64,000 nt of DNA from positions 588,954 to 652,953 of the forward strand of contig CAWDML010000009.1 in the NCBI GenBank assembly GCA_963803435.1, written 5' to 3'. Of this stretch, positions 12,351 through 57,537 are shown in pieces (position 1 is the first letter of the stretch; each line of letters starts with the position of its first letter). The notes beneath the pieces were generated by a model, which saw only the letters and a list, made by a program, of their open reading frames with translations, was not told the DNA's origin and did not search any database. The stretch comes from an uncultured delta proteobacterium (GTDB taxonomy: Bacteria > Myxococcota > Kuafuiibacteriia > Kuafuiibacteriales > Kuafuiibacteriaceae). The position numbers and the translations under genes are program-made.

Positions 12351-12425
12351 TCCCCCGGAGGCTAGCCGCCCTTGAGGATGGCGTCATCTCCGTGGTCGGA
12401 TCGGGCCTCGAGGGCGCAGGACGCG

Positions 12426-23300: not shown

Positions 23301-24398
23301 GTGGTGGAGTGCGACGTCGCCGTCATCGGAGGGGGCCCCGCAGGTGCAGCGGCCGCCACCGTCCTCGCGGGACACGGACATCGCGTGCACGTCCTCGAAC
23401 GCGCCCGGCTGCCTCGCGCGCACGTCGGTGAGTCGCTCCCCCCGAAGGTGGCGCCTCTTCTCGCGATCCTGGGAGTCGCCGAGCGCATCGACGCGGCCGG
23501 ATTCGAGCGGATGCGCGGGACCACGATCGCGCGGGGGAACGGGATCGACAGCCACGACTTCCACCCCGGCGGTGCGCTGCGAGGGTATCAGGTCGATCGG
23601 GCTCGGTTCGATCGGATCCTGATCGAACGGGCGCGAGAGGTCGGCGCGACGGTCCTGGAGGAGGCGGCCTTCACCGGGGTGCTGCGCGAGGGCTCACGCG
23701 TGGTCGGTGTCTGCTTCTCGCACGGCGGGGGTGCGGAGGAGCTCCGCGCCCGCTTCGTGGTCGACGCCTCCGGGACCCCGGCGGTGGTCTCGCGCGCGCT
23801 CGGGATGAAGCGCCGCGATGCGATCCGCACGGTCGCCCTGTCGGCGTACTGGGAAGGGACGCGGGCACCGGTGACGTTTCCGGCGACCAACACGCTCTTC
23901 GAGATGGTGGAGGACGGCTGGGTGTGGTCGCTCCTGCGCGCGGACGGGCTCCGAAACGTCACGCTCGGGCTCGATCCTGCAACCCTCCAGACCGCCGGGG
24001 TCTCGAAGCGAGAGGTCTATCTCGAGCGGGTGCGCGACGGGTTGCTGGTGGCGCCGCTGCTCGAGGGGGCGCGCCTCACCGGGACGGTCGAGATCGCCGA
24101 CGCCACCTGGTCATCGGCCGAGCGCTACGCGGGGGATGGCTTTCTGTTCGCCGGGGACGCGGCCTCCACCATCGACCCGCTCACGTCGCAGGGCGTCTAC
24201 AAGGCGCTCCAGTCCGGCATCGTGGGAGCGGCTGCGATCAACACCTGCTTGTCGCGCCCGGAGGACGCCGCCCTGGCGCTCGTCTACTACCAGGCGTCTC
24301 AGGAGGAGTTCCAGCGCAACTACGCCGAGATCGCGCTCGACCTTCTATCGCGCTTCACCGTTTCAGGAGGCGCCCTTTTGGAGGACGCGCATGCGCTC
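23301..24398 (+). CDS. FAD-dependent oxidoreductase, flavin-dependent (tryptophan-type) halogenase-like; the 3' end is undefined and the reading continues without a stop
   Basis: GTG start. Dinucleotide fold DVAVIGGGPAGAAAA..VHVLER. GESLPPK (halogenase GESL/Lys context), a GWVWSLL (WxW) segment, and FAGDAAS. After about residue 365 the in-frame reading becomes G/P/R-rich with no stop until 24788. Confidence 0.65.
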
Positions 24399-24853
24399 GG
24401 AGGCCCTGGCGGAGGCCGGCATCGACGCGGACCGCATCAAGGAGGAGCTCGACCGCCGCCTGGCCTTCTACGAGCGCCTCGGTCGCTCCGGCGGGTCGGG
24501 CCTGACGGCGGCGCGGCGGGCAGATTCTGTCCTGCGAGCTGCGGCCCGCCGCCGAGGGCGGGTTCATCGTCAAAAAGCCAATGCTCTCCGACGGAACGGC
24601 GCGCCCGGTCGACAGCGGGCGCCTCGACGCTCCGCTGCTCCTCGAGCTCCTCGACGGCCGCACGCTCTCCGAGGTGTTCGAGGCGTACGTCGCGCGGACC
24701 GGCGAGGAGCGCTCGTCCCGCCTCGGCCGCTCGCTTCTCACGACGGTGGCCCAGCTCGCGGCTCGGGATTCTGATCGAGGTGGTCTAGGCTGGTGTGCGC
24801 ATGCGCTGCGCGGGCGGCACCTGACGGACCTACCGGCAGGTCCGCTAGAGTGA
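24391..24853 (+). CDS. PqqD-family peptide-binding (RiPP recognition element) protein or domain; +1 frameshift near 24518. May be the C-terminal domain of the upstream FAD enzyme
   Basis: ATG 24391 is preceded by AGGAGG and GGAGGA. It reads MRSEALAEAGIDADRIKEELDRRLAFYERLGRSGGSGLTAARR and then, in the next frame, QILSCELRPAAEGGFIVKKPMLSDGTARPVDSGRLDAPLLLELLDGRTLSEVFEAYVARTGEE...RLGRSLLTTVAQLAA. Compare K. pneumoniae PqqD: ...[34 protein letters not shown]. Confidence 0.55.
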
Positions 24854-24860
24854 TTCTACC

Positions 24861-25265
24861 GTGACCGAGGATGCTTACGAGCTCACCACCGAGGATCTGA
24901 TCGAGACGTTCGACACCGACTCGATCGCGCCGCCGTCTGTGCAAGTTGGCTTGCCGACGCCGCGGACTCGCTCGAACGTCTCGGTGACCGGAGCGACGCC
25001 GCCTCCAGCGCCGACCGCCGACCGACCTCGGTTCGTGCCCTCGGCGCTCTCTCGGCCGATCAAGGAGCGGACGCGCAGCCAACGCGAGCTGAAGCTCGAC
25101 GAGGGGCCGACCAGCCTGGTGTCGAAGGCCGCCGCGTTCTTCGAGGAGGCGCTCGAGGCGGAGCGGGAAGGGGACGTAGCTGCTGCGATCCGCCACGTGA
25201 AGCTGGCGATGACGTTCAACCCCGCCGACCCACGGTATGCGGGCTTCCTCAGCAAGCTCCGCTGA
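24861..25265 (+). CDS. hypothetical protein (134 aa): acidic N-terminus, Pro-rich middle, helical C-terminus
   Basis: GTG start 8 nt after the PqqD-like stop. MTEDAYELTTEDLIETFDTD...AAAFFEEALEAEREGDVAAAIRHVKLAMTFNPADPRYAGFLSKLR. Good codon usage. Confidence 0.5.
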   Translation: MTEDAYELTTEDLIETFDTDSIAPPSVQVGLPTPRTRSNVSVTGATPPPAPTADRPRFVPSALSRPIKERTRSQRELKLDEGPTSLVSKAAAFFEEALEAEREGDVAAAIRHVKLAMTFNPADPRYAGFLSKLR

Positions 25266-25268
25266 AGC

Positions 25269-28200
25269 TCACTTCTCAGGCTCGGTGCCGGCGCGGAGCC
25301 CGTGTCCGTTGCTCGCTCCGTCCGACAGCGCGTTGAGCTTCATCAGCTCGATCAGCTCGAGCAGGGGCCTCGTCAAGCTCCGCACCTCTTCCAGGTTCTG
25401 CGCGGAAGAACGAACGAGCGGGAGCAGCGCCGCCTCCAGCTCCTTGGGGGCCTGGTTCTGGACCTCGACCCTGACCTCGGAGGGTGAGCTCAGCTTCGCC
25501 ACCGCCGAGTCGAGCCTCGCCAGATGCTGGTCGAGCCAGGCGTCGCTCCGCTCGGCGCCCATCGCCTCCGCGATCCGCATCTGGATCCGATCGAGGTGCT
25601 CGCCCAGGCTCCCGATCGTCGAGGTGACACGCACGACTGGGTCCTGATCGCCGCCGCCGGTGACCTGCACGCGCCGGAAGTCCTTCTTGATCTGCTCCCA
25701 GCGCTGCGACTCCTCGTCGGTGAGGCGCCCGCGCAGCTCGGCGAGCTTGAGCAGGTTGTGCTCGGCGCCGGTCGTCAGCGTCTGGGCCTCGCTCCGCGTA
25801 GTGATCGTCGATCAGCGCCTCCAGCTCGGCGTCGTTCATCGCCGGCACGACCTTCTCGGCGAGCTTGTTCATGTTGCGGTAGCTGCCCTGGAGCTTGAAC
25901 GGCGGCTCGGTGCGGAAGCGGTCGTCCTGCGACGCCGACGCGATGTACTCGCGGTTCACGGCCAGGAGCACCTCTCGCGCCGCGAACAGCCGCTGAGAGC
26001 ACCGCGACGATCTCCTCGCTCTCGACGCGGAGTAGGCGTGCGCGAAGTCGGTCGTCCGGGACCTCCTCGCCCCTCGCCATGCGGATGAGCTTGTAGGCGT
26101 CGTCGAGCGCGCGCGCGGCGAGCGGCGCGAGCACCGGGTTGGAGGTGAGCGCGTTCTCGACGTAGCAGAGCGCGAAGAGCTCGTCCTTGCCGTGGAGGAT
26201 GTCGCCGAGGTTGTAGGTGTCGGCGCGGTTCGCCAGCATGTCGGGGATCTGGAACTTCTCGCCGGACTCCGTGTACGGATTGCCCGGCCATGACCACGCA
26301 GAACTTCTTGCCGCGCAGGTCGTAGGTCCGCGTCTGGCCCTTCCAGACGCCCTCGATCCGCCGCTGCGCGTCGCACAGCGAGATGAACTTCTGCAGCAGC
26401 TCCGGGTTCGTGTGCTGGATGTCGTCGAGGTAGAGCATCACGTTGTTGCCCATCTCGAACGCGAGGTTGATCTTCTCGACCTCCTGGCGCGCGGTGGCGT
26501 TGGGCGCCTCGGCGGGATCGAGCGAGGTCACCTCGTGGCCGAGCGCCGGGCCGTTGACCTTCATGAAGACGAGCCCGAGCCGGCTGGCCACGTACTCCAT
26601 CAGCGTGGTCTTGCCGTAGCCGGGCGGCGAGACCAGCAGCAGCAGGCCCATCAGGTCGGTGCGCTTGCTCTCGCCGGCCGCGCCGATCTGCTTGGCGAGG
26701 TTGTCGCCGATCAGCGGCAGGTAGACCTCGTTGATCAGCCGGTTGCGCACGAAGGAGGTGAGCACGCGCGGCTTCAGCTCGTCGAGCCGCAGGCGGCGCC
26801 GCTCGCGCTCGACGATCTCGGCGCGCAGCGCGCGAAACGCTCGGAAGGCCGGCACCCGGACCTCGCGAGAACGCGGTCGAGCCGCGCGAGGAACTCGTCG
26901 AGGCGGAGGCGAAGGGTGCGCTCCACGATACGCGGGTGCTGGCCGAGCAGCCCCTCGATCGTGACTGCGGTGACGCGCTGCTCTCGACGCGCGGCAGGCC
27001 CTCCGTCACCAGCAGCACCGCCGCCTCGATCAGCGAGGGCGCCAACGCCTCGATCGCGCCCGAGCCGCCCTCGAGCAGCGCCTCGAGGTAGGCGAGGGCG
27101 ACGGACAGCTTCTCGGGAAGGCTCCGCTCGAGAGCCTCGAGGTCCTCCTCGAACAGCCGGAGCGTGCCCTCCAGCGTGACGTGCTGGAACAGGGCGTCGC
27201 GGAGCTTGACCGCGTCGCGCCCTGGTGAACGAAGGACGGTCCGCGATCAGCTCCTCGACCAGGTACCGCCCGGCCAGGCGTAGCGTGCCGGTCCGGTGCT
27301 CGATCGCGTGCGCCTCCAGGAAGTCCGCGATCGCACCCGAGAGCTCGCCGGCGAGGGTCTCCTCGGCGCGCTGGTGGGCGAAGGATCGCCGCGAGCCGCC
27401 CCAGGCTGCGGGCGCGCCGCTGCCAGAGCGCCTTGCGATCGGCGTCGTCGAGGTACGCCCAGAAGAGGCACGCCCACGCGCGCGGCTCGGGGCGAAGCGA
27501 AGCAGCCCGCGCTGTGGCGCAGCGCCGCCAGCAACTTGTCCAGGATCGCGGCCGCGTCGGCGTCGTGGACGCCGCGCTCGTAGCCCTCGTCGTAGCGGTC
27601 GGCCGCGTACCTTCGAACGGCCTCGAGCAGCTCGCCGCTCTCGAGGCGCGACGAGATCCGAGATCGCGCATCATCGAGGACGCGAGGTACTCGCCGCGGT
27701 AGACCGCGTCCGTCTCGGAGACGAGCTTCTGGTCCCAGAGCGCGCGGCCGGCCTCGAAGCGGGGATCGTCGATCTTCTCGTAGTACTGCGTGCCGGTGAG
27801 GTGCAGGTACATCGCGCCGTCGCGCGGCACCAGCGTGAGCTCGAGCGGCTGCGTGTTGACGTTGAACCGGTGCTGCCCGAGCTTGATGACGCTCTCGCCG
27901 TCGTCGTAGAGGTCCAGCTTGTCGCGCAGGTCCGCGGAGGCGTCCTGCTTGGCCGACTTCAGGCGCGACTCGATCTCGTCGGCCTTCACCGTGTCGCCGA
28001 GCTCGACGAGCTGCCCGACGAGCTCCCGGAGCTTGAGCACCATCGCGTCGGAGGCGAAGTACGCGTTGAGCTCGTCGTCCTCGCCGAAGCTCTTGGCGCG
28101 CCGATTCACGCTCTCCAGGATCCGCTCGGCCGCGGTGGCGATGTTCTGGGCCCGCCGCTGGCGCTCGTCGAGGAGCTGCTGCTTCTTGGCCTCGAAGGCC

Positions 28201-30480
28201 TCGTAGACCTCCTCGCGCTTGCTCGCGAGCTCGCCGAGGAACTCGTCGAACTCGCCGAACCGGCCCTCCAGCTCCTCGAGCTGGACCATCAGGCGCGAGA
28301 GCTGCTCGTCGCAATGCTCGGGCGTGTCGGCCAGGGCGATCGCGCTGGTCACGCTCTGGCCGAGCAGCTTGAACTGGGCGCCGAACTCGGCCTTGCCCTC
28401 CCTCGAGAGCAGCGTCGCTTGTGCGGTGACCAGCGTCGCGCGCACGCGGTTCAGGTGGGCGAACACCTCGGAGATGTGCTCCAGGATCTCGGTGCGCTGC
28501 GGTGGCGTCGTCGACCTCCAGCCCGGCCACCGTCTCGGAGAGGAGGTCGAGCCCCTGCGTGAGGATCGTCCAGCTCCTTCTCCAGCGGCACGAGCTCGGT
28601 TGGCCTTGTCGGTGTCCTCGACCTTGGCGAGCAGCGCCTCGAGCTGCTCGAGCAGCGGGGACAGCGCGTCGTCGGCGAGGAGGAAGGCGACGCAGTGCTT
28701 GCTGACGCGTCGAACTGCTCGACGACCTCCTGCTCGAGGCGGTCGAGCGCGGCCAGGTCGATGTAGCGCACCTCGCTCAGCGTGATGAGCTGGCCGCGCT
28801 GCTTCCTGAGCGCCGCCAGCGCGTCGAGGAACTCCGAGATCTGCTTCGAGTCTTCCGGACGGAGCTCGCGGACGATCGCCTTCTGCTGCTCCTCGGTCTG
28901 CTTCAGCGCCTGCTCGGCGCGTTCGCGGAGCGCCAGCACCTTCTCGAACTCGTCGACGATCAGCTCGGCGTGGTCTTGATCTCGATCGAGCGTGGTCTTG
29001 AAGTCGCCCGCCTCGGCCTCGCCGAGCCAGTAGTAGCTGTCGACGCATCCGGGTGACGTTCGCGATCAGGTCCTCGTAACTCTGGCGCGTCGGGCGCTCC
29101 TGATGGATCGGCGGACGCATCGAGTCAGGCGTCGGAGATCCCGCGCACCAGATCGGCGTTGCCGACCTTGGCCAGGTAGGAGCCGCGTCGGGGCGTGGCG
29201 GCCGCGAACTCGGCGGAGGTGAACGGGCGTCTGCCAGATCTGCATCGGGTGCACGCGGGTCGGCTCGTCTGAGACCGCGCGGAACACCACCATGTTGCCG
29301 TCGTCGAACAGGCTGAAGCCGTGGCAGACGGATCGGGTTCTGGACCTCCTTGCGGATCAGGTTGTAGGGGAGGAGCACGTAGCGTCCCGCGAGCTCGTGA
29401 TAGAAGACGTAGAGCACGTCCTCGCCGTTCGGGCGAGCTGATCGCCCGCATGAAGCTCGAGGTTCGTCGTAGTCGCCGTCGAAGACCTTGTGCTCGCCGG
29501 TCTGCAGGTAGTAGCCGCCGGGGAAGATGATCCCGTGGTCCTCGGGCAGCTGACGCAGGCCTCGCCGATCGCGTCGAGCCGGCGCACGTCCTTGGTCCGC
29601 GTGTTGAACACCAGGTGGCGCCAGGCGTTCTCGCGATAGGGCAGGATCTTGAGGAGAATCAGCGGACCCGACCTTCGCGTAGTGGATCTCGGCGTCGTCG
29701 AGCGTCTGGCGCGGGTCGTCGACCGGCTCGCGGTAGATGCCCAGCCCGTCCTCGGTGTTGTTCTCGACCTTGATCGTGAGATCGCCGCCGACGGTCTCGA
29801 CGAACACCTGGTCGAGGATCGAGACGTGCGGGTGGCGCCCCGAGACCTGGTCCTCGCGGGTGGTCTGGATCCACTCGAAGTCGATGCGGCGGCGGCAAGA
29901 CGTGGTCGCGCTCGCCCGCGGTTGTCGATGTACGTCGGGTTCCGTCGGGATCGAGCGACCAGCGGAGCACCTTGACGTCGTCGAGCGTCGCGGCCGACCT
30001 GGAACACCGCGAGCAGCTGCGTCTCGCTGCGAGATCTCGGATCACGAGCAGCTTGGCGTCCTTGTAGTACCGGTACAGCTCGTCGAAGTCGCGGGCGAAG
30101 CCGGGATCGACCAGCAGGCCGGGGACGCTGTCCGCCGGGGCCTGCGATAGATCGAAGCCACCCTCGGGGGTGCGCTCGAAGCGGTGCAGGCTGAAGACGT
30201 CGCCGACCTGGTCTCGGTGCTTGAGACCGATGAAGACGTTGTAGCCGAAGAGCAGCTGCCCGCCGACCTGGACGATGTCGCGGGGGACGCAGTTGTTCTC
30301 GGTGCGCACGCGCTCGTTGCCGATCACCGCGAGCTCGGTCCCGCCGAAGGTCTCCTTGCGGCGGGCGTTGAGCTGGTCCGCCTTCCCGGTCAGCACCTCG
30401 GCCGGCTCGAGAAGGCGGGATCGGATGACCTCGTAGCTCCCGCCCTCGAGGGCGTCGTTCGTCTGCTCGCCGTCGCTCAT
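25269..30480 (-). pseudogene. very large (about 1700 aa) AAA_5 (MoxR/McrB/dynein-like) ATPase gene, reading broken by at least 12 single-base indels
   Basis: Coding-like fragments across at least 5 listed ORFs or frames on the minus strand.
- N-terminal domain: MSDGEQTNDALEGGSYEVIRSRL...FGYNVFIGLKHRDQVGDVFSLHRFERTPEGGFDL.
- Middle: ...PEDHGIIFPGGYYLQTGEHKVFDGDYDEP...EDVLYVFYHELAGRYVLLPYNLIRKEVQNPI....
- About 290-aa coiled-coil stretch: TEILEHISEVFAHLNRV...GESVIKLGQHRFNVNTQPLELTLVPRDGAMYLHLTGTQYYEKIDDPRFEAG.
- AAA_5 core: LLLVSPPGYGKTTLMEYVASRLGLVFMKVNG...MLYLDDIQHTNPELLQKF...KKFCVVMAG|NPYTESGEKFQIPDMLANRADTYNLG....
- C-terminus: ...REVLLAVNREYIAS...LEALIDDHYA and ...ARLDSAVAKLSSPSEVRVEV....
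The start ATG overlaps the flotillin stop (TGATG). Confidence 0.6.
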
Positions 30481-32582
30481 CAGTTCGGCTCGTCGACTCC
30501 CAGCTCCTTGGCCTTTTCGACCAGGCTCTCGAGCTTCTTCTTCGTCTCACCGTCGGCGCCGGCCATCATCTTGCCGAGGAAGTTCGACACCGTGTCGCCG
30601 TTCGCCAGGTACTTTCCGAAGAGGTGCTGGACGTGGTTGCTGTTGTCGACCACGCCGTCGACCGCCTGGCCCACCGAGACCGCGTTGATGAACCGGTCGA
30701 AGAACTGTCCGTCGCCGCCGACGATGTTGATGTTCGCCTCCTCCAAGGCCTCGCACATGATCTTCGCGCGCTGCTCGGCGATCGCCTTGCGGGCCTCGAT
30801 CTCGGCCAGCGCCACCTGACGGTCCATGTCGAGCCGCAGCCGGAACTCCTCGTGGCCGCGGCTGGCCTCGTCGAGCAGCTTCATCGCGGCGGCCTTCTCG
30901 CGGATCGCCAGGGCCTCCGCCACGCCTTCCTTCTCCCGGACCTCGGCGCCTCGGCCTCGCCGATCCGCGCGCCGACCAGGCCCTGCTCCTCGCGCCCTTG
31001 GCCTCGGCCAGCAGCTTCTCGCGGACGATCGAGGCCTCGGCGACGCCGCGCTTCTCGATCGCGTGGGCCTCGGCCTCCTGGACGCTGACCCTCGCCAGGC
31101 CCTTCTCCTGCTCACCGGCGGCCTCCGCCTCCAGCTGTCCGCGCGTGACGCGGGCCTTGGCGTTGCCCTCCTTCTCGATCGCGACCGCGTCGGCCTCCTT
31201 GACGCGGACCTCGGCCAGGCCCTCGGCGGCAGCCTCGGCCTGGGTGCCCTCGGCCAGCCGGATCTTGGCCTTGGCGTGCTTGTCGGCGGCCTCGAGCTCG
31301 GCGTCGGCCAGCGTGAGCTTCTCCTTGGCCTTGAACTTGGCCGCCTCTTCGCTGGCCTCGGCGGCGCGCACGGTCTTCACCAGCCTTCCTGCGCCTCGGC
31401 CTCGGCGTGCGATGACCTGGACCTCCTTCTTCCGCTTGGCCTCGGCCACCGCGCGGACGTCCTTGATCCGCTCCTCCTCCTCGGCGACCGTCTTGTCGAC
31501 CGCGATGCGCGCGCGGATGACGTCCGCGATCTCCTTCTTCTCGATCTCGAGCTCCTTCTCCTTGGCGATCCGCTTGACAGCTCGGTCTCGCGCTCGCGGA
31601 TGATCTGCCTCCAGGGCCTGGTCCTTCTCGACGCGCTCGTTCTCGACGGCACCACGCGCTCCTGGTTCTTCTTCGCGACCTCGATCTGGCGGTTCTTCGC
31701 CTCTTCGCTGACCTCGACCTCTTCCTCGGCCTTGATTCGCGCGATCTCGGCCTTCTGGTGCTCCTCGGCCTGGACCTCTGGGTCTCGGCCTCCTCGCGCG
31801 CCCTCACGGTCGCGATCTCGCGGGCCTGCTTGGCCGCGGCGTCCGCACAGCTGCCGCTCGAGCTCCAGGATCGCCTCCTCGGCCTCGACGTTCTGCTTCT
31901 TGATCTGCTTGCGCTCGGTCTGCTTGAGGTCGTTGGTCTGAACGCTCTGGAGCGTGGTCAGCTCGGTGATCTTGCGGATGCCCTGGGCGTCGAGGATGTT
32001 GTGCGGGTCGAGGGACTCCATCGGGGTCTGCTCGAGGAAGTCGATCGCCGCGTCGTCGAGGACGTAGCCGTTGAGGTCGCGGCCGATCGTCCTGGATGAT
32101 CTGGTCCTTGAAGCTCGTCCCGCTTGGTGTAGAGCTCCTCGAAGTCGAGCTGCTTGCCGACGGTCTTGAGGGCCTCGGAGAACTTGGCGCTGGAACAGCT
32201 CCTCGAGCGTCCTCTGGTCCGAAGCGCGCGCGCAGCCGACCTGCTGGGCGACCTTGAGCACGTCCTCGGTGGTCTTGTTCACCCGCACGAAGAACGTGAC
32301 CTTGATGTCCGCCCGGATGTTGTCCTTGCAGATCAGGCCTTCCTTGCCGCGCCGATCGATCTCGATGGTCTTGACCGAGATGTCCATGACCTCGGCCCGA
32401 TGGATCACCGGGAGCACCAGGCCGCCGGTGAAGGTCACGATCGGATCCTTGCTCATCTTGTTGACGATCAGGGCCTTGCCTTGATCGACCTTTCGATAGA
32501 ACTTGGCCACCATCGCGGCGAACCCGGCGATGATGATCGCCAGGACCACGACTACGACTGCAGCGACTATCAGGTTTTGCAT
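30480..32582 (-). pseudogene. flotillin-like SPFH protein (YqiK/FloT family) with long Ala/Glu-rich coiled-coil tail; reading broken by about 6 indels
   Basis: ATG 32582 follows GAGGTCGAGGTAACG.
- N-terminus: MQNLIVAAVVVVVLAIIIAGFAAMVAKFYRKVDQGKALIVNKMSKDPIVTFTGGLVLPVIHRAEVMDISVKTIEIDRRGKEGLICKDNIRADIKVTFFVRVNKTTEDVLKVAQQVG.
- In-frame patches: ...TIGRDLNGYVLDDAAIDFLEQTPMESLDPHNILDAQGIRKITELT...
- Out-of-frame patches of 25-40 codons, e.g. QRQVLRGPQDRRQAARLRG... and CGRRGQAGPRDRDREG....
- The tail continues in two further frames (30547..31449, 30480..31115), ending ...NSNHVQHLFGKYLANGDTVSNFLGKMMAGADGETKKKLESLVEKAKELGVDEPN. Confidence 0.7.
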
Positions 32583-32595
32583 CGTTACCTCGACC

Positions 32596-33381
32596 TCACT
32601 TGGTTTGGCCTTGCCGTTGGGCATGGCCGGCCCGCTTCTTGGCGAGCTCGTTCTTTTCAGCGGAGCGAAGGGGCTCCACCCGGAAGGCATCGCGTTCGGC
32701 GTCCCACCCGATGATCAGCGCCTCGTCCCCCCGGTTCAGCTCGGAGGGACGATCGGAGCGGACCTGGATCTTGTGCTCGGTGCCGCCGTCTCGCGCGATC
32801 GCCTGGCCGAACTTGGCGTCGACGGATCCCGTATCGATGATGCAGGTGCGTCCGATCAGGTCGCGGTTGCGCTCGGCCTCGTGGGTGATGAACAGCGGTC
32901 CTAGAGGTCGAGCGACCACGTTGGCGGTGGGGAGCGCGGCCACCATCGAGATCAGCAGGACCCCGATGCCGGTGAGCCACGCGGGGAGAACGACGTCGAG
33001 CGCCGGCGCCAGGTAGGCCATCGCGAAGTAGCTGAGCACCCATCCGGAGAGCGCGAACAGGCTGAGGATGACGGTGACGGGCGCGGGACGCTTGCCGAGG
33101 AGCCCGTAGAACGTGAGGAGGCCCTCGCCGGCGTCGTGCACCTCGTGGATCTCGTGTGCGCCCTCTGCGGCGCCCTCCGCGGCGCCCTCTGCGGCCCCTT
33201 CCGCCGCGCCTTCCATCGTACCCTCGGCGCCGCCCTCGGCGGCGCCTTCCAGGCTGTCGAACATGTGGATGTCGAGCGCGCCGATGATCACGAACATCCA
33301 GTAGATGAGCACCACGCCGAGCATCACGGTGAAGACCACGGTGGGGAACGATGTGATCGATTCGACCAGTGTCATCATCAT
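32596..33381 (-). CDS. NfeD/YqiJ-like membrane protein (flotillin partner) with internal (GAAE)n repeat
   Basis: MMMTLVESITSFPTVVFTVMLGVVLIYWMFVIIGAL, then EGAAEGGAEGTMEGAAEGAAEGAAEGAAEGA, then TM helices, then a C-terminal OB-fold-like region (DAKFGQAIARDGGTEHKIQVRSD). It lies 13 nt upstream of the flotillin ATG. Confidence 0.7.
   Translation of the reverse strand: MMMTLVESITSFPTVVFTVMLGVVLIYWMFVIIGALDIHMFDSLEGAAEGGAEGTMEGAAEGAAEGAAEGAAEGAHEIHEVHDAGEGLLTFYGLLGKRPAPVTVILSLFALSGWVLSYFAMAYLAPALDVVLPAWLTGIGVLLISMVAALPTANVVARPLGPLFITHEAERNRDLIGRTCIIDTGSVDAKFGQAIARDGGTEHKIQVRSDRPSELNRGDEALIIGWDAERDAFRVEPLRSAEKNELAKKRAGHAQRQGQTK
33158..33253. repeat. imperfect 12-nt tandem repeat x8 (gcgccctcYgcg) inside nfeD, encoding (GAAE)n
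   Basis: Read directly: gcgccctctgcg gcgccctccgcg gcgccctctgcg gccccttccgcc gcgccttccatc gtaccctcggcg ccgccctcggcg gcgccttccagg. Confidence 0.6.
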
Positions 33382-33512: not shown

Positions 33513-36110
33513 ATGCGCAGCTTGTACTTCGTCGAACATCAGACCCATCAGGCGACCGTTGTCGAAGTGGTCGTCCGGCTCATCGGTTTCGCGCCCACGC
33601 GGTTCATCACGGCTGAAGGTGCGACCCGCGCCGTCGAAGGCGGATTCCCGGATCTCTTGCTGACGGATCTCGTCCTGCCGGGTCGCGACGGCCTCTCGTT
33701 GATCCGAGCCACCAAGGCCCGCGCCCCGGCGACCTTCTGTATCCTCCTCTCCTCCGTCCCTCCTGGGCTGTCGCCCTCCGCACCGGCGCGCTACGGCCTC
33801 GACGCCGTGATCGTGCGGCGTGGCGCGTGGGCCTCGCAGCTCGCCGAGCACGGAGGCCCCGACGCGGGCGCCCGCCGCTTGCTCGCGCTGATCGATCGAG
33901 GCTCGGCGGCGTTCGAGGCGCTGTCGGACGAGCTGAGCTCGGACCGGCTCACCGCGATGCAGCGCGTGCTCGTCCTCCGCTACCTGGCGGCCGCGTTCGA
34001 TCCCGATCGGGTGCTCGCCGTCCTGGAACGATCGATCCGCAAAGAAGGCATCCACTCGGTCGCGCTCGAGCTGGCGATCGGCCTCGGCGCCGCCGGCTTC
34101 GGCGTGGTGGGCGAGATGGCGACCGCGCCCGACGCCGGCGCCGAGACGCGCGGGCGCGCGATGCGGCATCTCGCGCGCTGCTTTCCACACGACGTCGTGA
34201 TGCCGCTTCTGCAATCCAACCTGCACGATCCTGCACCCTTGATCCGACTCGACGCCGCCCAGGCGGCGTTCGACAGCGCGGTGCGTGTAGGCGAAGGAGG
34301 ACTGGTGACGCTGCAGGAGATAGCCGAAGCGCGCGACTTGCCCGACGCGCTCCGGATCGCAGCGCTCGAGCACGTGGCCCGCGATCTGCCGCGCCCGGCC
34401 GTGAAGCCCGTGCTTTGTCGTGCGCTGGCGAGCGAGCGGCCCGCCCTGGTGCAGGCGGCCTCGACGCTCGCGATGCGGAGCGACGGCGTGGATGTGGAGT
34501 CGCTCGCCGGCCAGGCGGAGTCGGGACCGCTCAAATCTCGCCTCCGGGCGCTCGAGACCCTCGCGGCCGACTTTCCCAAGGACGCGGTGGTCCCGATCCT
34601 CGAGCGCTTCCAGAGCGCCTCCAATCCGGCGCTCCGCCGCTCGGCGTTCGAGCTCACGCTGGGCCGCGCCGACACCGGCTTCGAGGCGACCGTCCAGCGC
34701 GCCGCCGCCGAGGAGCGCGGGATGCTCGAGGCCTGCCTCCTGGGTGCGCTCCGGCTGGGACCCGCAGGCTTCGCGGCGGTCCGTCGGATCGCCGAGGAGG
34801 AGACGGCCGACCCGGAGGTCCGCGCGATGGCGGTCCGCATGCTCGGGGTCCGGTTCGACGCGGCGCGCGCAGCGGCGGCGCTGGAGGGGCTGGCAGCCTC
34901 GCCGGAGTTCGAGGTGGCGTCGGCGGCGCTCCTCGCCGCGATCCATTTGGGCGCCCCCGGCTTCGCGGTGCTGCGAGCAGCGCAGAGCTCGGCACCCATC
35001 CCGGCGATCCGCGAGCTGGCGCTGATCCACCTCGAGGAGTACGCGCCCGACCCAGTGTTCAAGCCCGCGCTGCAGCGCGCCCTGCGGGATCAGGATCCAG
35101 CAGTGTGCGCGCGCGCGGTCGAGCTCTGGATGCGCCGGCTCGGCGGCGAGTTCGCGCCGCTGCTGGCGCGCCTGGCCCGATCCGGACGTCCCGAGCTCCA
35201 GCAAGCCGCGCTCGACGGTGCGCTCGCGCTGGGTGAGGGCGGCTTCACCGCGATCGCGGCGCTGGCCGGGACGCTCGAGATCGATCGCGCCGTGCGAAAG
35301 CGCGCCCGCGCGGTGCTGGCCGCCCGGTTTCCGCCCGAGGACACCCGAGAGATCTTGGAGGCGCTCTCGAAGCCCACCGAACCGGCCATGCCCGCAGCGG
35401 CCACGCCGGACACCGGTCCGACCCGCCCGTCGCCCCCCGCCAACGCCCGCGCGTCGCGCGAGCGTGCCCTCCTGGCGCTGGAAGCCGCCGTGCGACGCGG
35501 GCGCGCCGGCTACCGAGCGATCCGAGCGCTGGCCGCGTCCACCCGGATCGCCGAGGAGGTCCGGATCCTGGCGATCCGAAGGCTCGCCGGCGACTTCGCG
35601 GGCGAAGAGGTCGTGCCCGTGCTCGAGCAGGCGATCGCCGATCCGTCGGACGGCGTGCGGAGCGCAGGCCTCGGCTGTCTCGTGCTCCGGAAGGACGCGC
35701 GCCTCCCTCCGCTCGCCGTCCTCGCGCGCGATCGCTCCGCCGAGCCTTCGCTCCGGATCCGGGCCCTCCGCTTCCTGGCGTCACGCTTCCCGAAGGAGGA
35801 GGTGCGTCCGATCCTCGAGCCGCTCCTCGAAGAGGGGGATCACGAGGTGCGGCGTGCTGCACTCGACTCTCTGTTCACGTCGCTCCGCTTCGTCCCTCCG
35901 GACCGTGTCGAGGAGCACCTGATCAACCTCCTGACCGAGCACGAGAGCGAGGAGGTGAAGATCGCCGCCGCGCGGGCGCTGGGCGTCTTCGGTGGCGCGC
36001 GCGCGCTTCGAGCGCTGGCCCGCTACTCGGGTGCGTTCGCCGGCCCTGCGGTGAAGGAGGCGGCCCAGCAGGCCTCGCTCCGCCTGCGTGGATACCGCGA
36101 CGCGCTCTGA
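33513..36110 (+). CDS. response-regulator receiver (atypical) fused to about 650 aa of HEAT/PBS-lyase-like repeats
   Basis: Receiver-like N-terminus with phospho-acceptor context LLLTDLVLPGRDGLSLIRATK, but no N-terminal acidic pair (VEHQTH). About 20 repeats follow, e.g. DPAPLIRLDAAQAA, NPALRRSAFELTLG, DPEVRAMAVRMLG. 865 aa, intact. Confidence 0.7.
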   Translation: MRSLYFVEHQTHQATVVEVVVRLIGFAPTRFITAEGATRAVEGGFPDLLLTDLVLPGRDGLSLIRATKARAPATFCILLSSVPPGLSPSAPARYGLDAVIVRRGAWASQLAEHGGPDAGARRLLALIDRGSAAFEALSDELSSDRLTAMQRVLVLRYLAAAFDPDRVLAVLERSIRKEGIHSVALELAIGLGAAGFGVVGEMATAPDAGAETRGRAMRHLARCFPHDVVMPLLQSNLHDPAPLIRLDAAQAAFDSAVRVGEGGLVTLQEIAEARDLPDALRIAALEHVARDLPRPAVKPVLCRALASERPALVQAASTLAMRSDGVDVESLAGQAESGPLKSRLRALETLAADFPKDAVVPILERFQSASNPALRRSAFELTLGRADTGFEATVQRAAAEERGMLEACLLGALRLGPAGFAAVRRIAEEETADPEVRAMAVRMLGVRFDAARAAAALEGLAASPEFEVASAALLAAIHLGAPGFAVLRAAQSSAPIPAIRELALIHLEEYAPDPVFKPALQRALRDQDPAVCARAVELWMRRLGGEFAPLLARLARSGRPELQQAALDGALALGEGGFTAIAALAGTLEIDRAVRKRARAVLAARFPPEDTREILEALSKPTEPAMPAAATPDTGPTRPSPPANARASRERALLALEAAVRRGRAGYRAIRALAASTRIAEEVRILAIRRLAGDFAGEEVVPVLEQAIADPSDGVRSAGLGCLVLRKDARLPPLAVLARDRSAEPSLRIRALRFLASRFPKEEVRPILEPLLEEGDHEVRRAALDSLFTSLRFVPPDRVEEHLINLLTEHESEEVKIAAARALGVFGGARALRALARYSGAFAGPAVKEAAQQASLRLRGYRDAL

Positions 36111-37606: not shown

Positions 37607-40009
37607 TCAGGGGGTCAGCGAGAGCTCGTACGTGTTCCCCTGGACGGTTCCCAGGTCCTGATACAGGTAGACGTGCAGCGTGAACACGCCGCTCACGTTC
37701 GCGGTCCCGGCGATGTTCTCGTTGTTCGTCGTGCTCTCAGAGGTCGCGGCGACGGTCCCGTCGGGCCCCAAGAGCTCGATGTCGATGTCGCCCTCGGCGT
37801 GGGTGAACAGGACGTCCATGTTGATCGAGTCGCCGCTGGTCAGCGGGATCGCGTAGTAGTCGTCGTCCCCGCAGGCGCCCAGGTTCGGGTAGCTTCCGAG
37901 GGACATCGTGGGCGCCGTGGTGGGCGTATCGTTCGGCTCGAAGGTGTCCACCGGGCACCCGACCGGGTTCGACCCGGAGACGGACACGTTCAGGGAGTAG
38001 GTATTGCCGAGCGTCGAGCCCGCGTCGGCGTAGAGCAACACGTGCAGGTAGTACGTGCCTGCGGTGACCACGGTGAACGAGACGTTCTCGCTGTTGTTCG
38101 AGGTGGAGCTCGAGTCCAGCACGGTCCCCGAGCCGTCGAGCAGCTCGAGGTCGATGTCGCCCTCGCCGTTGGTGAAGCTCGCGGTGGCGTCGATCTGGTC
38201 GTTCGCCGCCAGCGTAATCTGGTAGTAGTCGTCGTCACCGGTGCAGGTGTTGAGGTTGGTGTGGTTGCCCGTCGAGATCGTCTTGGCCGTCGCCCGGGTG
38301 TCGTTCTCCTCGAAGCTGTCCGCCGGGCACGTCTGCGGCTGCCCCTGGGTGATGATCACCTGGAGTTGATACGGATTGCCGGGCATCGAGCCCATGTCCT
38401 GATAGAGGGTGACGAGGATCTTCAGCAGCCCCCCGTTCTGCTGCGTGTACGTCACCGATTCGTTGTCCGTGACACTGGCAGAGGTGGCCACCGGGAGCGT
38501 GAGCTGGTTCAAGAGCGCCAGGTCGATGTCGCCCTCCGCCTGGCTGAACAGCACGTTCACCGTGATGGTCTCGCCGGCGTTGACGTAGATGTTGAAGTAG
38601 TCATCGTCGCCGTCGCAGACGTTGAGACCGTTGGTCGAGCCGGCCGAGACGAGGGGCGCCAGGAACGGTGAGTCGTTGTCCTCGAAGCTGTCGTCGGGGC
38701 ACGGCGAGGCCTGGGTGTCGATCCGGATCGAGTAAGTGTTGCCGGGCGTGGGCCCGAGATCCTGGGTCAGGAACACGCGGACCGCGTAGTCGCCGGCGGC
38801 GGCCGCCGTGTACTGGATGGTCTCGTTGTTGCCGGTACCGTTCGACATCGCGACCACCGAGCCGCCCGCGTTCACGAGCTCGATGTCGATGTTGCCCTCG
38901 CCGTTGACGAAGTCGACCGTGATGGTGACGTCGTCGCCGGCGCCGAGCGTGAAGCGGTGGAAGTCGACGTCGCCGGCGCAGATCGTCAGCTGCGTCTGGA
39001 GACCGCCGCCGGCGGAGGCCTGCGCGAACGTATCGTTGGGCTCCAGGCGATCGGGCATGCACATCCGCGAGCCGAAGCAGTGCCCGGAGGCCTGATCGCA
39101 GGTGTCCGGGCTGGTGCAGCCGGTCATCGCGCACCCCGGGTCGCAGCCGCCCGTGACCAGGTTGCAGATCTCGCTCGGCGTGTTGCACTCGAGATCCGAG
39201 AGGCAGATATCACCGACCTGCGTGCAGCGCCCGGTGCTCGGATTGCACTGCTGGCCGCCCGGACACTGCACGCCGCCGAACTCGGTGCAGCCCGGGATGC
39301 ACTGCCCGAACTCGCAGACCTCGGTCGGAGGGTTGCAGTCGGGGTCGGCCATGCACGGGCCGCGGATCGACACGCAGCGGCCGGTGTTCGTGTCGCAGAC
39401 CTGGCCGTTCATGCACTCGACGCCGTTGGGCTGGCCGCAGCCGAGCGTACAGGCGCCGGAGACGCAGATCTGGGTGGGCGGGCTGCACTGGGGGTCCGTG
39501 CTGCAGACGCCCGTCATGTTCTGGACGCAGGTGTTGTCGATGCAGGTCTGGTCCGCGGCGCACTGGGAGGCGTCGAGGCACTGGACGCACTCGGCGTTCG
39601 GGATGTCGCAGTGCTGGCCTCCGCTGCACTCCTCGTCGCCCGCGCACGCCGGACCGCGATCGATGCAGACGCCGGTCAGCGTGTTGCAGCGCTGGCTCTT
39701 GGCGCACATGGAGTCGTCGGTGCAGTCGGTGACCGTCGGGGTGAGGCAGGTCTGGGTGGCCTGATCGCAGATCTGGCCGAAGTCGCAGTTCTCGTCGGTC
39801 GTGCAGTTGCCGAGCACGGCCGGCGTGCAGGCGCCGCTCACGCACGCCTCGCCGGAGGCGCAGTCTCGGCTCGACGTGCAGGTACCGCCCGCACCGCCGC
39901 GACAAGCGCTGAGGAAGAGGAGGGTGAGGGTGGAGAGGCCGAGGGCAGTCCTCACGGGCTGAATTGTGGGGGGGCCGGCCGGAGGCGACCATCGGTTGAC
40001 CGACGTCAC
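37607..40009 (-). CDS. secreted lipoprotein: N-terminal myxococcal Cys-rich repeats plus four bacterial pre-peptidase C-terminal (PPC) domains
   Basis: Lipobox LLFLSACRGG. About 300 aa of CxxxxC repeats. Then four modules with the pattern EPND/EDND...GDVDFHRF / DGDDDYFNIY / GDDDYYQI / GDDDYYAI ... GEGDIDLELL ... YYLHV / NTYSL. Confidence 0.75.
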   Translation of the reverse strand: MTSVNRWSPPAGPPTIQPVRTALGLSTLTLLFLSACRGGAGGTCTSSRDCASGEACVSGACTPAVLGNCTTDENCDFGQICDQATQTCLTPTVTDCTDDSMCAKSQRCNTLTGVCIDRGPACAGDEECSGGQHCDIPNAECVQCLDASQCAADQTCIDNTCVQNMTGVCSTDPQCSPPTQICVSGACTLGCGQPNGVECMNGQVCDTNTGRCVSIRGPCMADPDCNPPTEVCEFGQCIPGCTEFGGVQCPGGQQCNPSTGRCTQVGDICLSDLECNTPSEICNLVTGGCDPGCAMTGCTSPDTCDQASGHCFGSRMCMPDRLEPNDTFAQASAGGGLQTQLTICAGDVDFHRFTLGAGDDVTITVDFVNGEGNIDIELVNAGGSVVAMSNGTGNNETIQYTAAAAGDYAVRVFLTQDLGPTPGNTYSIRIDTQASPCPDDSFEDNDSPFLAPLVSAGSTNGLNVCDGDDDYFNIYVNAGETITVNVLFSQAEGDIDLALLNQLTLPVATSASVTDNESVTYTQQNGGLLKILVTLYQDMGSMPGNPYQLQVIITQGQPQTCPADSFEENDTRATAKTISTGNHTNLNTCTGDDDYYQITLAANDQIDATASFTNGEGDIDLELLDGSGTVLDSSSTSNNSENVSFTVVTAGTYYLHVLLYADAGSTLGNTYSLNVSVSGSNPVGCPVDTFEPNDTPTTAPTMSLGSYPNLGACGDDDYYAIPLTSGDSINMDVLFTHAEGDIDIELLGPDGTVAATSESTTNNENIAGTANVSGVFTLHVYLYQDLGTVQGNTYELSLTP

Positions 40010-40490: not shown

Positions 40491-43400
40491 ATGAGCGGCG
40501 GCGACAAGGATCCCTCGGGCACCAAGAAGGACCGGCCGGCCACCGTTCCTGCGAGCGACATCGCCACCGACTCCTTCGGCGATACGCTGCGGACCAGCGA
40601 TCTGTCGGCGCAGCTGGGACACGAGTTTCCGACCGTGGATCCGGAGGCCTACGTGATCGGCGACGAGTTCGCGCGCGGCGGCCTGGGCCGGATCCTCGAG
40701 GCCCGGGACAAGCGGCTCAAGCGGCTGGTCGCCGTCAAGGAGCTGCTCACCCGCGAGCCCCGGGCCGAGGCCCGCTTCATCCGCGAGGCGCTCATCACGG
40801 CGCGGCTCGAGCACCCGAACATCGTGCCGATCCACGAGGCCGGCCGCTGGCCCGACGGCAAGCGCTTCTACGCGATGAAGCTCGTCGAAGGCCGCACGCT
40901 CAGCGCCGCCCTCGAGCATGCGAGCACCAAGGAGGAGCGCCTCGCGCTGCTGCCGCACGTGATCGACGTGGCGGACGCCGTCGCGTATGCGCACTCCGAG
41001 GGCGTGCTGCACCGCGACCTGAAGCCCTCGAACGTGCTGGTGGGCGCGTTCGGCGAGACCGTGCTGATCGACTGGGGCCTCGCGAAGGACCTCCAGGATC
41101 CATCCGACAGCCTCGATACGATGCCTGTGGTGCCGGCGGTCTCGACGCTCCGCACCGGCGACGGGATCGTGGTGGGCACGCCGCCGTACATGGCACCCGA
41201 GCAGGCGGCGGCGCGTCCGCTCGACGAGCGCGCGGACGTCTACTCCATCGGTGCCATGCTCTATCAGGTCCTCTCGGGTTGCCGGCCCTACGACGAGGTG
41301 GAGCCGCACCTGATCCTGCGCGAGGTGGTGACCCGTCCACCGCGCGCGCTGCGCGAGCTGGCGCCCGAGGTGGCGCCCGACTTGATCGCCATCGTGGAGA
41401 AGGCGATGTCGCGCGATCCCGACGACCGCTATCCGTCGGCGCGGGAGATGGCGGAGGAGCTGCGGCGCTTCACGGCGGGACAGCTGGTGGTCGCCCATCA
41501 GTACTCGCCCTGGGAGATCGTCCGCCGCTTCCTGCGCCGCCAGATCGCGGCGGTGGCCACCGCCCTCCTGGCGATGGCGCTCTTGCTGGCGGGCACGGTC
41601 TGGAGCCTGGAGAACATCAAGAGCGAGCGGAACCAGGCGCAGGCGAACGCGGAGCTGGCGCGCGCCCAGGTCGAGCAGCTCAAGCTGGAGAAGGCGCGTG
41701 CGCTGCTCGACGTCGACCCGACGCTCGCGCTCGCGTGGGAGAAGGAGCTCGAGGCTCCGCTCCCGGGCGCCGCTTCGATCGCGTCCGAGGCGATCGATCG
41801 AGGCGTGGCGCGCCACGTGCTCGATGGCCACGTCGATCGCGTGCTGATGGTGCGGGTCTCGCCGACGGGCGATCGCATCGCTTCGTCGAGCGACGACGGC
41901 ACGGTGCGCCTGTGGGATCCCGCCACCGGCGCGAGTCAGAGACTGAGCGGCCACGCCGCGCGCGTCTCGGCGATCGCGTTCTCGCCCGACGGTCGCCGGC
42001 TGGCCAGCGGCAGCCACGATCACACGGTGCGGATCTGGGACGTGGCGACGGCGACCTCGGTCGTGCTCACCGGACATGAGGGCGGCGTGATGCACGTGGC
42101 CTGGTCCCCGGACGGGCGCTGGGTCGCGTCGAGCAGTGAGGACGAGACCGTGCGCGTCTGGGATCTGCGGGGACAGACCCCTGCCCCCGCGCCGTTTCGC
42201 ATCTTCCCGGCGCCGGACGCCACCCGCAACGTGATCTCGGCCTTCTCGCCGGACGGCCGCTGGCTGGTCACCGGCGGTCACGGCGCAACGATCGATCTGT
42301 TCGACGTGGAGAGCGGGGCGCGCACGCGGCTGACGGGGCACAGCGGCGAGGTCACCCACGTAGCGTTCGCACCGGACGGTCGCACGTTCGCCTCCGCGAG
42401 CGAGGACGGCACGGTACGGATCTGGTCGGTCGCGAACGGGAGCGCGCAGGTGTTCGACGGTCACGAGGGCGCGGTGCTCTTCGTGGCCTACGCCCCCGAC
42501 GGCGCGACGCTCGCCTCGGCGGGGCTCGACGGGACGGTCCGCCTGTTCACGCGGGAGGGCCGGCCGATCTCGGTGTTGCGCGGTCACTCCGAGCGCGTGC
42601 GCGAGCTGGCGTTCTCGCCGTCGGGAGGCCGCCTCGCCTCGGCCTCGTGGGATCACACGGTCCGCGTCTTCAATCTCGAGAACGGTGAGAGCCAGGAGCT
42701 GCTCGGTCACACCGAGTTCGTCGCCTCGGTCGACTTCGCGCCCGACGGCCGGCTGCTCGCCTCCGGCTCGTGGGACCATACGGTCCGGGTGTGGATGCTG
42801 GAGGCGTACCGGCGGCGCGTGCTTCGCGGCCATCGCGTCGGGGTGCACGCGGTCGACTTCTCACCCGACGGCCAGCGCATCGCCTCGGGCGGGCACGATG
42901 ACGCGGTCCGGATCTTCGATCTGGAGACGGGTCGAAGCCGCGCCTTCCTCGGTCATCGCGACCACATCTTCCGCGTGCTGTTCTCGCCGAGTGGCGAGCA
43001 GGTGGCGAGCTCGAGCGACGATCGGACCGTCCGCCTCTGGAACGTCGCCGACGGCAGCAGCATGGTGCTGACGGGGCACCAGGCCGACGTGGAGGAGCTC
43101 GCGTTCTCGCCCGACGGCAAGCGGCTGGCATCGGCGGGGGAAGACGACGTCGTCCGCCTCTGGGACACGGTGAGCGGCGCCTCGATCGCCCTCACCGGGC
43201 ATCGCGCGGCCGTCACCGCGGTGGCGTTCGATCCGTCGGGTGCGCACCTGGTGTCCGCCAGCCGCGACGGCACCGCCCGCATCTGGCCCATGGCGGGCGG
43301 CGACCCGGTCGTGCTCTCGGGACACGACGACGAGGTCTGGGACGCGGTCTTCTCTCCCGACGGTCGCACAGTGGCCACCGCCTCCGTCGACGGGTCGCTC

Positions 43401-43847
43401 CGGATCTGGTCGCTCGAGGGCGCGAAGGTCCGGGCCTACGACGGCCTGGGACGCATGAGGCTGGTGGCCTTCTCCCCCGACGGCGAGCGCATCGCCGTGG
43501 GCGGCGAGAAGCTGTGGCTGTGCGGGCGGCGCTCGACGGTGTGCCGGCTGGTCGTCGGCCATCACGCGGAGGTGCTCGACCTCGCGTTCAACCGCGCGGG
43601 CTCGCTCGCGACCGCCTCGGCCGACGAGACGGTGCGGCTGTGGGATCCGAGCACGCTCGAGTCCCACGTCCTGCGGGGTCATCGCGCGGCCGTGTTCGAC
43701 GTCGCCGTCTCGCCGAAAGGTGATCGGGTCGCCTCGGCGAGCGGAGACGCCGACGTGCGGATCTGGCCCTTCGTGCTGCCACCGAAGCCGAGCGAGCTGT
43801 CCTCGTGGCTGTCAGCCACGACGTCGCTGACGGTCGAGGACCCGTGA
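40491..43847 (+). CDS. Ser/Thr protein kinase fused to about 14 WD40 repeats (1118 aa)
   Basis: Kinase motifs: VAVKEL, HRDLKPSNVLV, DWGLAKD, APEQ. A TM-like segment IAAVATALLAMALLLAGTVW. Then WD40 units with repeated GH...WD contexts (SGSHDHTVRIWD, ...). Intact. Confidence 0.85.
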   Translation: MSGGDKDPSGTKKDRPATVPASDIATDSFGDTLRTSDLSAQLGHEFPTVDPEAYVIGDEFARGGLGRILEARDKRLKRLVAVKELLTREPRAEARFIREALITARLEHPNIVPIHEAGRWPDGKRFYAMKLVEGRTLSAALEHASTKEERLALLPHVIDVADAVAYAHSEGVLHRDLKPSNVLVGAFGETVLIDWGLAKDLQDPSDSLDTMPVVPAVSTLRTGDGIVVGTPPYMAPEQAAARPLDERADVYSIGAMLYQVLSGCRPYDEVEPHLILREVVTRPPRALRELAPEVAPDLIAIVEKAMSRDPDDRYPSAREMAEELRRFTAGQLVVAHQYSPWEIVRRFLRRQIAAVATALLAMALLLAGTVWSLENIKSERNQAQANAELARAQVEQLKLEKARALLDVDPTLALAWEKELEAPLPGAASIASEAIDRGVARHVLDGHVDRVLMVRVSPTGDRIASSSDDGTVRLWDPATGASQRLSGHAARVSAIAFSPDGRRLASGSHDHTVRIWDVATATSVVLTGHEGGVMHVAWSPDGRWVASSSEDETVRVWDLRGQTPAPAPFRIFPAPDATRNVISAFSPDGRWLVTGGHGATIDLFDVESGARTRLTGHSGEVTHVAFAPDGRTFASASEDGTVRIWSVANGSAQVFDGHEGAVLFVAYAPDGATLASAGLDGTVRLFTREGRPISVLRGHSERVRELAFSPSGGRLASASWDHTVRVFNLENGESQELLGHTEFVASVDFAPDGRLLASGSWDHTVRVWMLEAYRRRVLRGHRVGVHAVDFSPDGQRIASGGHDDAVRIFDLETGRSRAFLGHRDHIFRVLFSPSGEQVASSSDDRTVRLWNVADGSSMVLTGHQADVEELAFSPDGKRLASAGEDDVVRLWDTVSGASIALTGHRAAVTAVAFDPSGAHLVSASRDGTARIWPMAGGDPVVLSGHDDEVWDAVFSPDGRTVATASVDGSLRIWSLEGAKVRAYDGLGRMRLVAFSPDGERIAVGGEKLWLCGRRSTVCRLVVGHHAEVLDLAFNRAGSLATASADETVRLWDPSTLESHVLRGHRAAVFDVAVSPKGDRVASASGDADVRIWPFVLPPKPSELSSWLSATTSLTVEDP

Positions 43848-57512: not shown

Positions 57513-57537
57513 TTTGAGGCGAGGGTGCCGGCCGATG

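Follow-up and report, generated by a model that had tools for sequence, protein, structure and literature searches.

Is a run of genes whose coding signal jumps repeatedly from one frame to another a decaying operon or a badly determined sequence? The question is raised by a locus on contig CAWDML010000009.1 (assembly GCA_963803435.1) of an uncultured delta proteobacterium of the family Kuafuiibacteriaceae (Myxococcota). The whole stretch analysed, referred to here as the window, is 64,000 nucleotides (nt) long (contig positions 588,954 to 652,953) with a GC content of about 70%. On its minus strand, from position 33381 to 25269, it carries genes for a YqiJ-like membrane protein, a YqiK-type flotillin and a giant ATPase, in this order and all co-directional. 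Single-base insertions and deletions (indels) interrupt the reading of the last two genes, and the original prediction, made from the sequence alone, had left the choice between decay and poor assembly open. The best overall explanation, to which we give a probability of roughly 0.78, is that the operon is genuine and conserved, that its breaks are assembly errors and that its inferred function is that of an SPFH scaffold with an AAA+ remodeller. The features concerned are the following, in window coordinates.

32596–33381, minus strand: gene for a YqiJ/NfeD-like small membrane protein; 261 amino acids (aa), a single intact open reading frame (ORF)
30480–32582, minus strand: gene for a YqiK-type flotillin; about 700 aa when reconstructed, SPFH/Band_7 domain followed by a long, presumably helical region rich in Glu and Ala, about 13 single-base indels
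25269–30480, minus strand: gene for a giant ATPase of the DUF3686/"DNA repair ATPase" family; some 1,735 codons long, interrupted by about 30 single-base indels but by no in-frame stop
29000–30400 (approximate limits), minus strand: N-terminal helix and DUF3686 domain of the ATPase, a predicted beta-propeller
25990–26640 (approximate limits), minus strand: MoxR-like AAA+ module of the ATPase, with the motifs GYGKT, DDIQH, AGNPYTE and MLANRAD
24339–32189, no strand: indel-dense tract of 7.85 kb, broken by some 45 single-base indels; its limits do not coincide with gene or operon boundaries

A single operon of three coupled genes

The junctions between the genes are tight. The YqiJ-like gene ends with TGA at 32598–32596 and the flotillin ATG occupies 32582–32580, leaving a 13-nt spacer which includes GAGG. 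The flotillin and ATPase genes overlap in a TGATG, in which the flotillin stop (TGA, 30482–30480) shares a base with the ATPase start (ATG, 30480–30478). Both the 13-nt gap and the overlap had been predicted, and both are exact. The ATPase reading closes with a stop at 25271–25269. These couplings, read directly from the sequence, together with the conserved linkage described below, bear out the proposal that the three genes form a single operon: they are translationally coupled and nearly always linked. Genes for HEAT-repeat, cation-efflux, PEGA and halogenase-like proteins flank the operon.

The assignment of the first two genes to the yqiJ/yqiK type also stands. E. coli YqiJ aligns with a profile of 39 family members, the window protein among them (hhalign 96.9%, E 1.3e-10, 176 columns), and this alignment spans the C-terminal beta region. 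In Pfam, the best match of the window protein is to YqiJ_N and is sub-threshold (E 0.051), while 10 of the 39 family members match YqiJ_N (best 3.8e-5) and a single one matches NfeD. The protein is composed of an N-terminal transmembrane segment, an acidic Gly-Ala-Glu repeat linker, further transmembrane segments and a C-terminal beta domain. Its gene lies directly upstream of the SPFH gene and is co-directional with it, an order also found in related loci. The linker (EGAA) is encoded by a 12-nt tandem repeat (33158–33205, minus strand) between transmembrane segments and differs widely in length across orthologues.

The N-terminus of the reconstructed flotillin matches Band_7 (1.3e-13; 51.8 bits against a cut-off of 23.6), and its hydrophobic N-terminal anchor, LIVAAVVVVVLAIIIAGFAAMVA, can be read directly in the sequence. 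Downstream of the SPFH domain, Glu- and Ala-rich, presumably helical sequence is visible. The protein is 64% identical to the intact orthologues of two related loci, L001 and L002, and the L002 orthologue is in turn 29% identical to E. coli YqiK over 437 aa (BLASTP, E 3e-37). Pfam searches with full-length flotillin orthologues gave no match, nor did PDB sequence searches with the flotillin.

A gene neighbourhood conserved across phyla

Co-occurrence of the ATPase with flotillin operons in other genomes had been proposed as a check on their linkage, and the linkage was found almost everywhere. Upstream sequence of 2.6 kb or more is available for 54 ATPase loci; in 53 of them the next gene upstream, on the same strand, is the flotillin gene, and a YqiJ-like gene precedes it in most. 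The linked loci span at least six phyla (Myxococcota, Verrucomicrobiota, Actinomycetota, Gammaproteobacteria, Bacteroidota and Acidobacteriota), and the trio is also carried by the Pseudomonas fluorescens plasmid pQBR103 and by a Deinococcus plasmid. The original prediction was thus mistaken in regarding this as a non-standard arrangement. An operon of this kind, composed of flotillin, an AAA+ protein with coiled coil and beta-propeller, and a YqiJ/YuaF-type protein, is already known from a comparative-genomic study (Ravi et al., mSystems 2024, PMC11237479). According to these authors it occurs either with a CesT/Tir–PspA dyad and phospholipase D (PLD) or in a widespread abbreviated form which may work with a PspA encoded elsewhere. 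The window copy is of the abbreviated form, with neither the dyad nor a PLD gene adjoining it, and it differs from the published operon in the many single-base indels of its deposited sequence. The searchable literature yielded no paper under DUF3686/PF12458, under "DNA repair ATPase" with flotillin or under YqiK with MoxR. The window adds one more copy to a gene neighbourhood known from earlier work, none of it experimental.

Several individual loci are worth recording. The sole exception among the 54 is in a Beggiatoa metagenome-assembled genome (QKBZ01000451.1, locus L031), where genes for quinolinate phosphoribosyltransferase and an aspartyl protease lie upstream of the ATPase gene. On pQBR103 (NC_009444.1, 87106–106269, from strain SBW25; locus L073) the trio, annotated as hypothetical, SPFH and "DNA repair ATPase", follows yjfK/L/M/C-like genes for DUF2491, DUF350, DUF1190 and glutathionylspermidine-synthase proteins. 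A PLD gene lies about 8.6 kb downstream of the trio, and the whole matches the extended context linked to the phage-shock protein (PSP) system in PMC11237479. In Roseibacillus persicicus (locus L040), a 148-aa ORF resembling IS200/RAYT-type transposases (7419–7865) is located between the flotillin and ATPase genes, and insertions of this type may be the cause of the gaps of 0.5–1 kb that separate the two genes in several Verrucomicrobiota loci.

Frame breaks and their location

Frame breaks were located with a purpose-written protein-to-DNA aligner which permits shifts of +1 or −1, using intact orthologues from related loci as queries. With a strict penalty and two homologues, 30–31 events were found in the ATPase gene, 8–9 in the flotillin gene and none in the YqiJ-like gene, and no in-frame stop was encountered. 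A laxer penalty and ten intact homologues gave 31–39 events in the ATPase gene and 9–13 in the flotillin gene; under the same settings intact control loci gave 0–6 and 0–1, respectively. The excess over the control loci is far beyond chance. At 43 consensus sites, each backed by at least five of the ten homologues, a single-base indel can be placed: 13 in the flotillin gene (32189–30945) and 30 in the ATPase gene (30035–25791), with a median spacing of 82 nt. The at least 12 shifts in the ATPase and about six in the flotillin that had been counted by eye were therefore an undercount.

The composition of the sequence gives the same picture. GC content at third codon positions (GC3) changes phase every 100–400 nt or so, as had been described, while retaining minus-strand polarity throughout, and it stays at 0.9–1.0 within each frame segment. 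In a Viterbi path based on codon usage, the region from 25.27 to 32.63 kb falls into more than 35 segments of differing frame; elsewhere the window consists mostly of long single-frame genes which end at stops.

The tract and the operon have different limits. Indels are absent from the YqiJ-like gene and from the initial 390 nt or so of the flotillin gene; at the rate of the tract, about five would have been expected in this part. At its other end the tract enters a convergent gene for a FAD-dependent halogenase-like protein (23301–24853, plus strand) downstream of the ATPase, which is frameshifted at about position 24339; alignments to halogenases in the PDB cross this junction. The statement that the neighbouring large genes are perfectly intact is correct only for the biggest ORFs (for example 33513–36110, 37607–40009 and 40491–43847) and incorrect for the halogenase-like gene, for nuoG and for cpsB.

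Other breaks were observed across the window. The halogenase-like gene is probably frameshifted a second time at about 24512. The N-terminal part of nuoG, the gene for subunit G of complex I (57533–57951, plus strand), contains three frame changes, close to 57647, 57750 and 57951, and one Fer2_4 domain spans two of these junctions. A gene for a CpsB/CapC-type PHP tyrosine phosphatase (cpsB; 12366–13173, plus strand) is frameshifted at 12573/12574, and its Pfam domain is continuous across the break (profile positions 2–233 of 234). The codon-usage path contains further stop-free switches at about 3011, 4940–5378, 49498, 50347 and 55441, for example in genes for ECF-sigma-like and HSP90-like ATPase proteins, which are possible indel errors.

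Sequencing errors or mutations?

The nature of the lesions is informative. They are essentially all of +1 or −1 nt, and the 43 consensus sites comprise 29 insertions and 14 deletions. Homopolymers are found at 21% of the indel sites and at 22% of random positions, and are thus not enriched. Larger indels specific to the window are absent: the reconstructed ATPase has one unique deletion of 1 aa and unique insertions totalling 3 aa, as is the case for intact homologues. Conservation of the protein was assessed from 153 invariant columns, located away from the junctions and defined from 47 intact full-length ATPase homologues of several phyla. The reconstructed ATPase keeps 151 of them; in a leave-one-out comparison, intact homologues break 0–12 (mean 1.1).

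Natural indels in bacteria show a deletion bias in pseudogenes, vary in size and are concentrated in homopolymer runs, while poorly corrected long reads (PacBio continuous long reads, CLR, or a low-coverage consensus) typically leave single-base indels at random sites, with an excess of insertions. An artefact is favoured on five counts: the indel spectrum, the retention of invariant residues, the lack of stop codons and of larger deletions, the disregard of the tract for gene boundaries and the frameshifts in housekeeping genes elsewhere. It is almost certain that the indels arose as sequencing or assembly errors of the deposited sequence; the most likely source of the roughly 45 indels is a patch of about 8 kb of poorly polished, low-coverage long-read consensus. 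The frameshifted ORF at 25956–26855 is itself present in a public protein collection (as P0053, on a 1.8-Mb NCBI/ENA contig), and the errors therefore sit in the deposited assembly. In the cell, all three genes are most likely intact.

Two other sources of frameshifts were ruled out. Programmed frameshifting or recoding would have to accommodate 43 irregular shifts in both directions which share no motif and would be undecodable. Errors of the homopolymer type (454, Ion Torrent, classic Oxford Nanopore) are not the main signature, given the absent homopolymer enrichment.

An artefact of another origin, in which the consensus derives from co-assembled diverged strains or from a chimeric metagenome join and was mis-polished and not poorly covered, is unlikely but has some observations on its side. 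The closest relatives are all metagenome-assembled genomes, many with contig names in the style of long-read assemblies; the errors are patchy, as in the cluster of three within about 300 nt of nuoG; and the ATPase fragments P0108, P0005 and P0007, from large ENA contigs, are also out of frame. A mixture of strains would, however, also have introduced substitutions, yet the invariant columns are kept, and neither a repeat nor a break in composition marks the ends of the tract. The three fragments (contigs of 210–340 kb) end in out-of-frame tails rich in Arg and Pro soon after the AAA+ core, and similar frameshift errors seem to affect this long, high-GC ATPase gene in other assemblies.

Genuine decay, with the flotillin and ATPase genes gathering frameshifts as pseudogenes in the organism itself, is very improbable. 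It would fit a density of breaks 30–40 times that of the rest of the window, and an operon that is accessory, patchily distributed and at times located on plasmids is one whose loss could be tolerated. Decay would not be expected to leave lesions exclusively of one nucleotide, with insertions outnumbering deletions by two to one and no sequence context avoided, nor to leave the genes free of in-frame stop codons, with nearly all invariant residues and the high GC3 of each frame segment preserved; and the tract runs past the operon into the convergent gene, with nuoG and cpsB hit as well. Of the two possibilities first raised for this locus, poor assembly is accordingly well supported and decay is contradicted by the spectrum, the conservation, the lack of stops, the limits of the tract and the hits in nuoG and cpsB.

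Several points nevertheless weigh against an assembly artefact. A 30–40-fold excess of indels is concentrated in the 8-kb tract, and neither flanking repeats nor an anomaly of GC content or composition account for it. A very recent burst of indels would spare invariant residues equally well. The attribution to a sequencing platform (PacBio CLR or low-coverage consensus) is a tentative one. Finally, scans of genomes and metagenomes provided no relative above 69% aa identity for a base-by-base check of the indels; the verdict of assembly error is therefore a strong inference and not a proof.

Domain architecture of the ATPase

Once its frame is restored, the ATPase aligns end to end with its homologues and is 62–63% identical to the orthologues of L001 and L002. 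The fragments in the window match DUF3686 (3.1e-41), DUF7902 and AAA_5/AAA in Pfam, and the intact L002 orthologue carries DUF3686, DUF7902 (PF25472) and an AAA+ P-loop, the combination which defines this family of proteins of about 1,600–1,900 aa. DUF3686 (PF12458, 448 aa) is present at full length in orthologues. What had been described as an unfamiliar N-domain of about 150 aa is the first third of this catalogued domain, for which a beta-propeller fold is predicted from a model built on the N-terminal half of a database fragment. The middle of the protein is a helical region of about 800 aa.

The earlier AAA_5/MoxR-like call is confirmed by the Walker A sequence VSPPGYGKTT, by the AAA_5 match (34.6 bits against a cut-off of 22; PF00004 scores similarly) and by the fold. 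In an alignment of 56 homologues the AAA+ motifs are invariant: GYGKT, the Walker B DDIQH, the sensor-1 Asn in AGNPYTE and the Arg in MLANRAD. An AlphaFold model of the AAA+ module from a close homologue (predicted local distance difference test, pLDDT, 86) has its best TM-scores with the MoxR ATPases NorQ and CbbQ2 (TMt 0.55–0.64), and RuvB and MCM match too. PDB sequence searches with the ATPase returned only weak matches to classic AAA proteins, and NCBIfam and PADLOC gave no meaningful family. Taken together, domain matches and models indicate that the protein is soluble and joins a propeller to a helical region and a motor of the MoxR type. In the same alignment the AAA+ core is about 70% identical between phyla, which is unusually high.

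In its AAA_5 signature, including the NP-x-E...P-x-x-L-x-x-R motif, and in its nearest folds (NorQ and CbbQ2) the protein resembles the MoxR family (NorQ, CbbQ, RavA). In contrast to these it has no partner gene with a VWA domain and MIDAS motif, is about six times larger, carries additional domains and has Asp-Asp and not Asp-Glu in Walker B. From its sequence, it resembles a MoxR motor without belonging to a canonical MoxR system, the VWA/MIDAS partner being absent.

A possible function for the flotillin and its ATPase

Domain content, the MoxR-like AAA+ fold, the propeller fold of DUF3686 and the neighbourhood on pQBR103, with its yjfK/L/M/C-like and PLD genes, are the grounds for a functional model. 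In this model a scaffold or cage of the SPFH kind, like those of known structure, would be built on the inner membrane by flotillin and its YqiJ partner. The ATPase, in the cytoplasm, would probably assemble into a MoxR-type ring with long helical arms that end in beta-propellers, and the ring would dock on the scaffold through these propeller-tipped arms. With ATP it would build, reshape or remove protein complexes at the membrane when the envelope is under stress, and a PspA homologue from another locus may take part. The likeliest role of the trio, a tentative assignment with a somewhat less than even chance, is that of an SPFH membrane scaffold served in envelope stress by an AAA+ remodeller of its own, in a logic analogous to that of HflK/C–FtsH. 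That the trio constitutes a flotillin/YqiJ cage serviced by a giant MoxR-like AAA+ ring, and hence a second independent partnership between SPFH and AAA+ proteins, is plausible but likewise falls short of an even chance; the near-obligate linkage, the folds and the 70% or so AAA+ identity between phyla are what allow this reading. Three observations count against the proposed function: no PspA gene adjoins the operon in the window, none of the three operon proteins or flanking genes contains a VWA domain, and the invariant Walker B pair across the 56 homologues is Asp-Asp (LDDIQH) where Asp-Glu would be usual in MoxR proteins.

That the ATPase is instead a DNA-repair or anti-phage defence protein whose association with flotillin is incidental, as its Pfam and RefSeq names ("DNA repair ATPase"), weak structural matches to RuvB and MCM and a weak PADLOC match of the helical region to LmuB (4e-5) might suggest, is very improbable, since the domain search of the ATPase revealed no nuclease, helicase or DNA-binding domain, its NCBIfam RuvB match is far under the cut-off (20 bits against 282), PADLOC detected no significant system, linkage to a membrane scaffold is near-universal, the neighbours in the window do not form a defence island and no experiment in the searchable literature stands behind the name. 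What speaks for such a role beyond the name are weak matches of a generic AAA+ or SMC-like kind.

Relation to known systems and significance

The first two genes are homologous to E. coli yqiJ and yqiK and are arranged in the same order. In E. coli, however, no ATPase gene follows, its place being taken by sibD/ibsD, and YqiK is shorter (553 aa against about 700 aa for the window flotillin). The best precedent for an SPFH membrane scaffold genetically coupled to an AAA+ machine is HflK/C–FtsH, in which an SPFH cage encloses an AAA+ protease. Unlike FtsH, the window ATPase is predicted to be soluble and lacks a protease domain, is MoxR-like and not of the classic clade, and has a putative beta-propeller and a helical region of about 800 aa.

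For the genome itself, the shattered reading points to a local problem of assembly quality, at about 24.3–32.2 kb and in smaller patches such as nuoG, and not to gene loss. Before pseudogenes or metabolic traits are inferred from this contig, it should be re-polished. For the family, the locus draws attention to an unusually conserved ATPase which is tied to flotillin nearly everywhere and which databases mislabel as a "DNA repair ATPase". As a practical way into the roles of bacterial flotillin scaffolds, intact copies are available in hosts open to experiment (P. fluorescens SBW25 with pQBR103, locus tags PQBR_RS00460–00470; Proteus mirabilis; and Vibrio campbellii). If the model of a cage serviced by an ATPase ring is correct, flotillins of bacteria would have a biochemical client that can be named, and would take a place beside HflK/C–FtsH.

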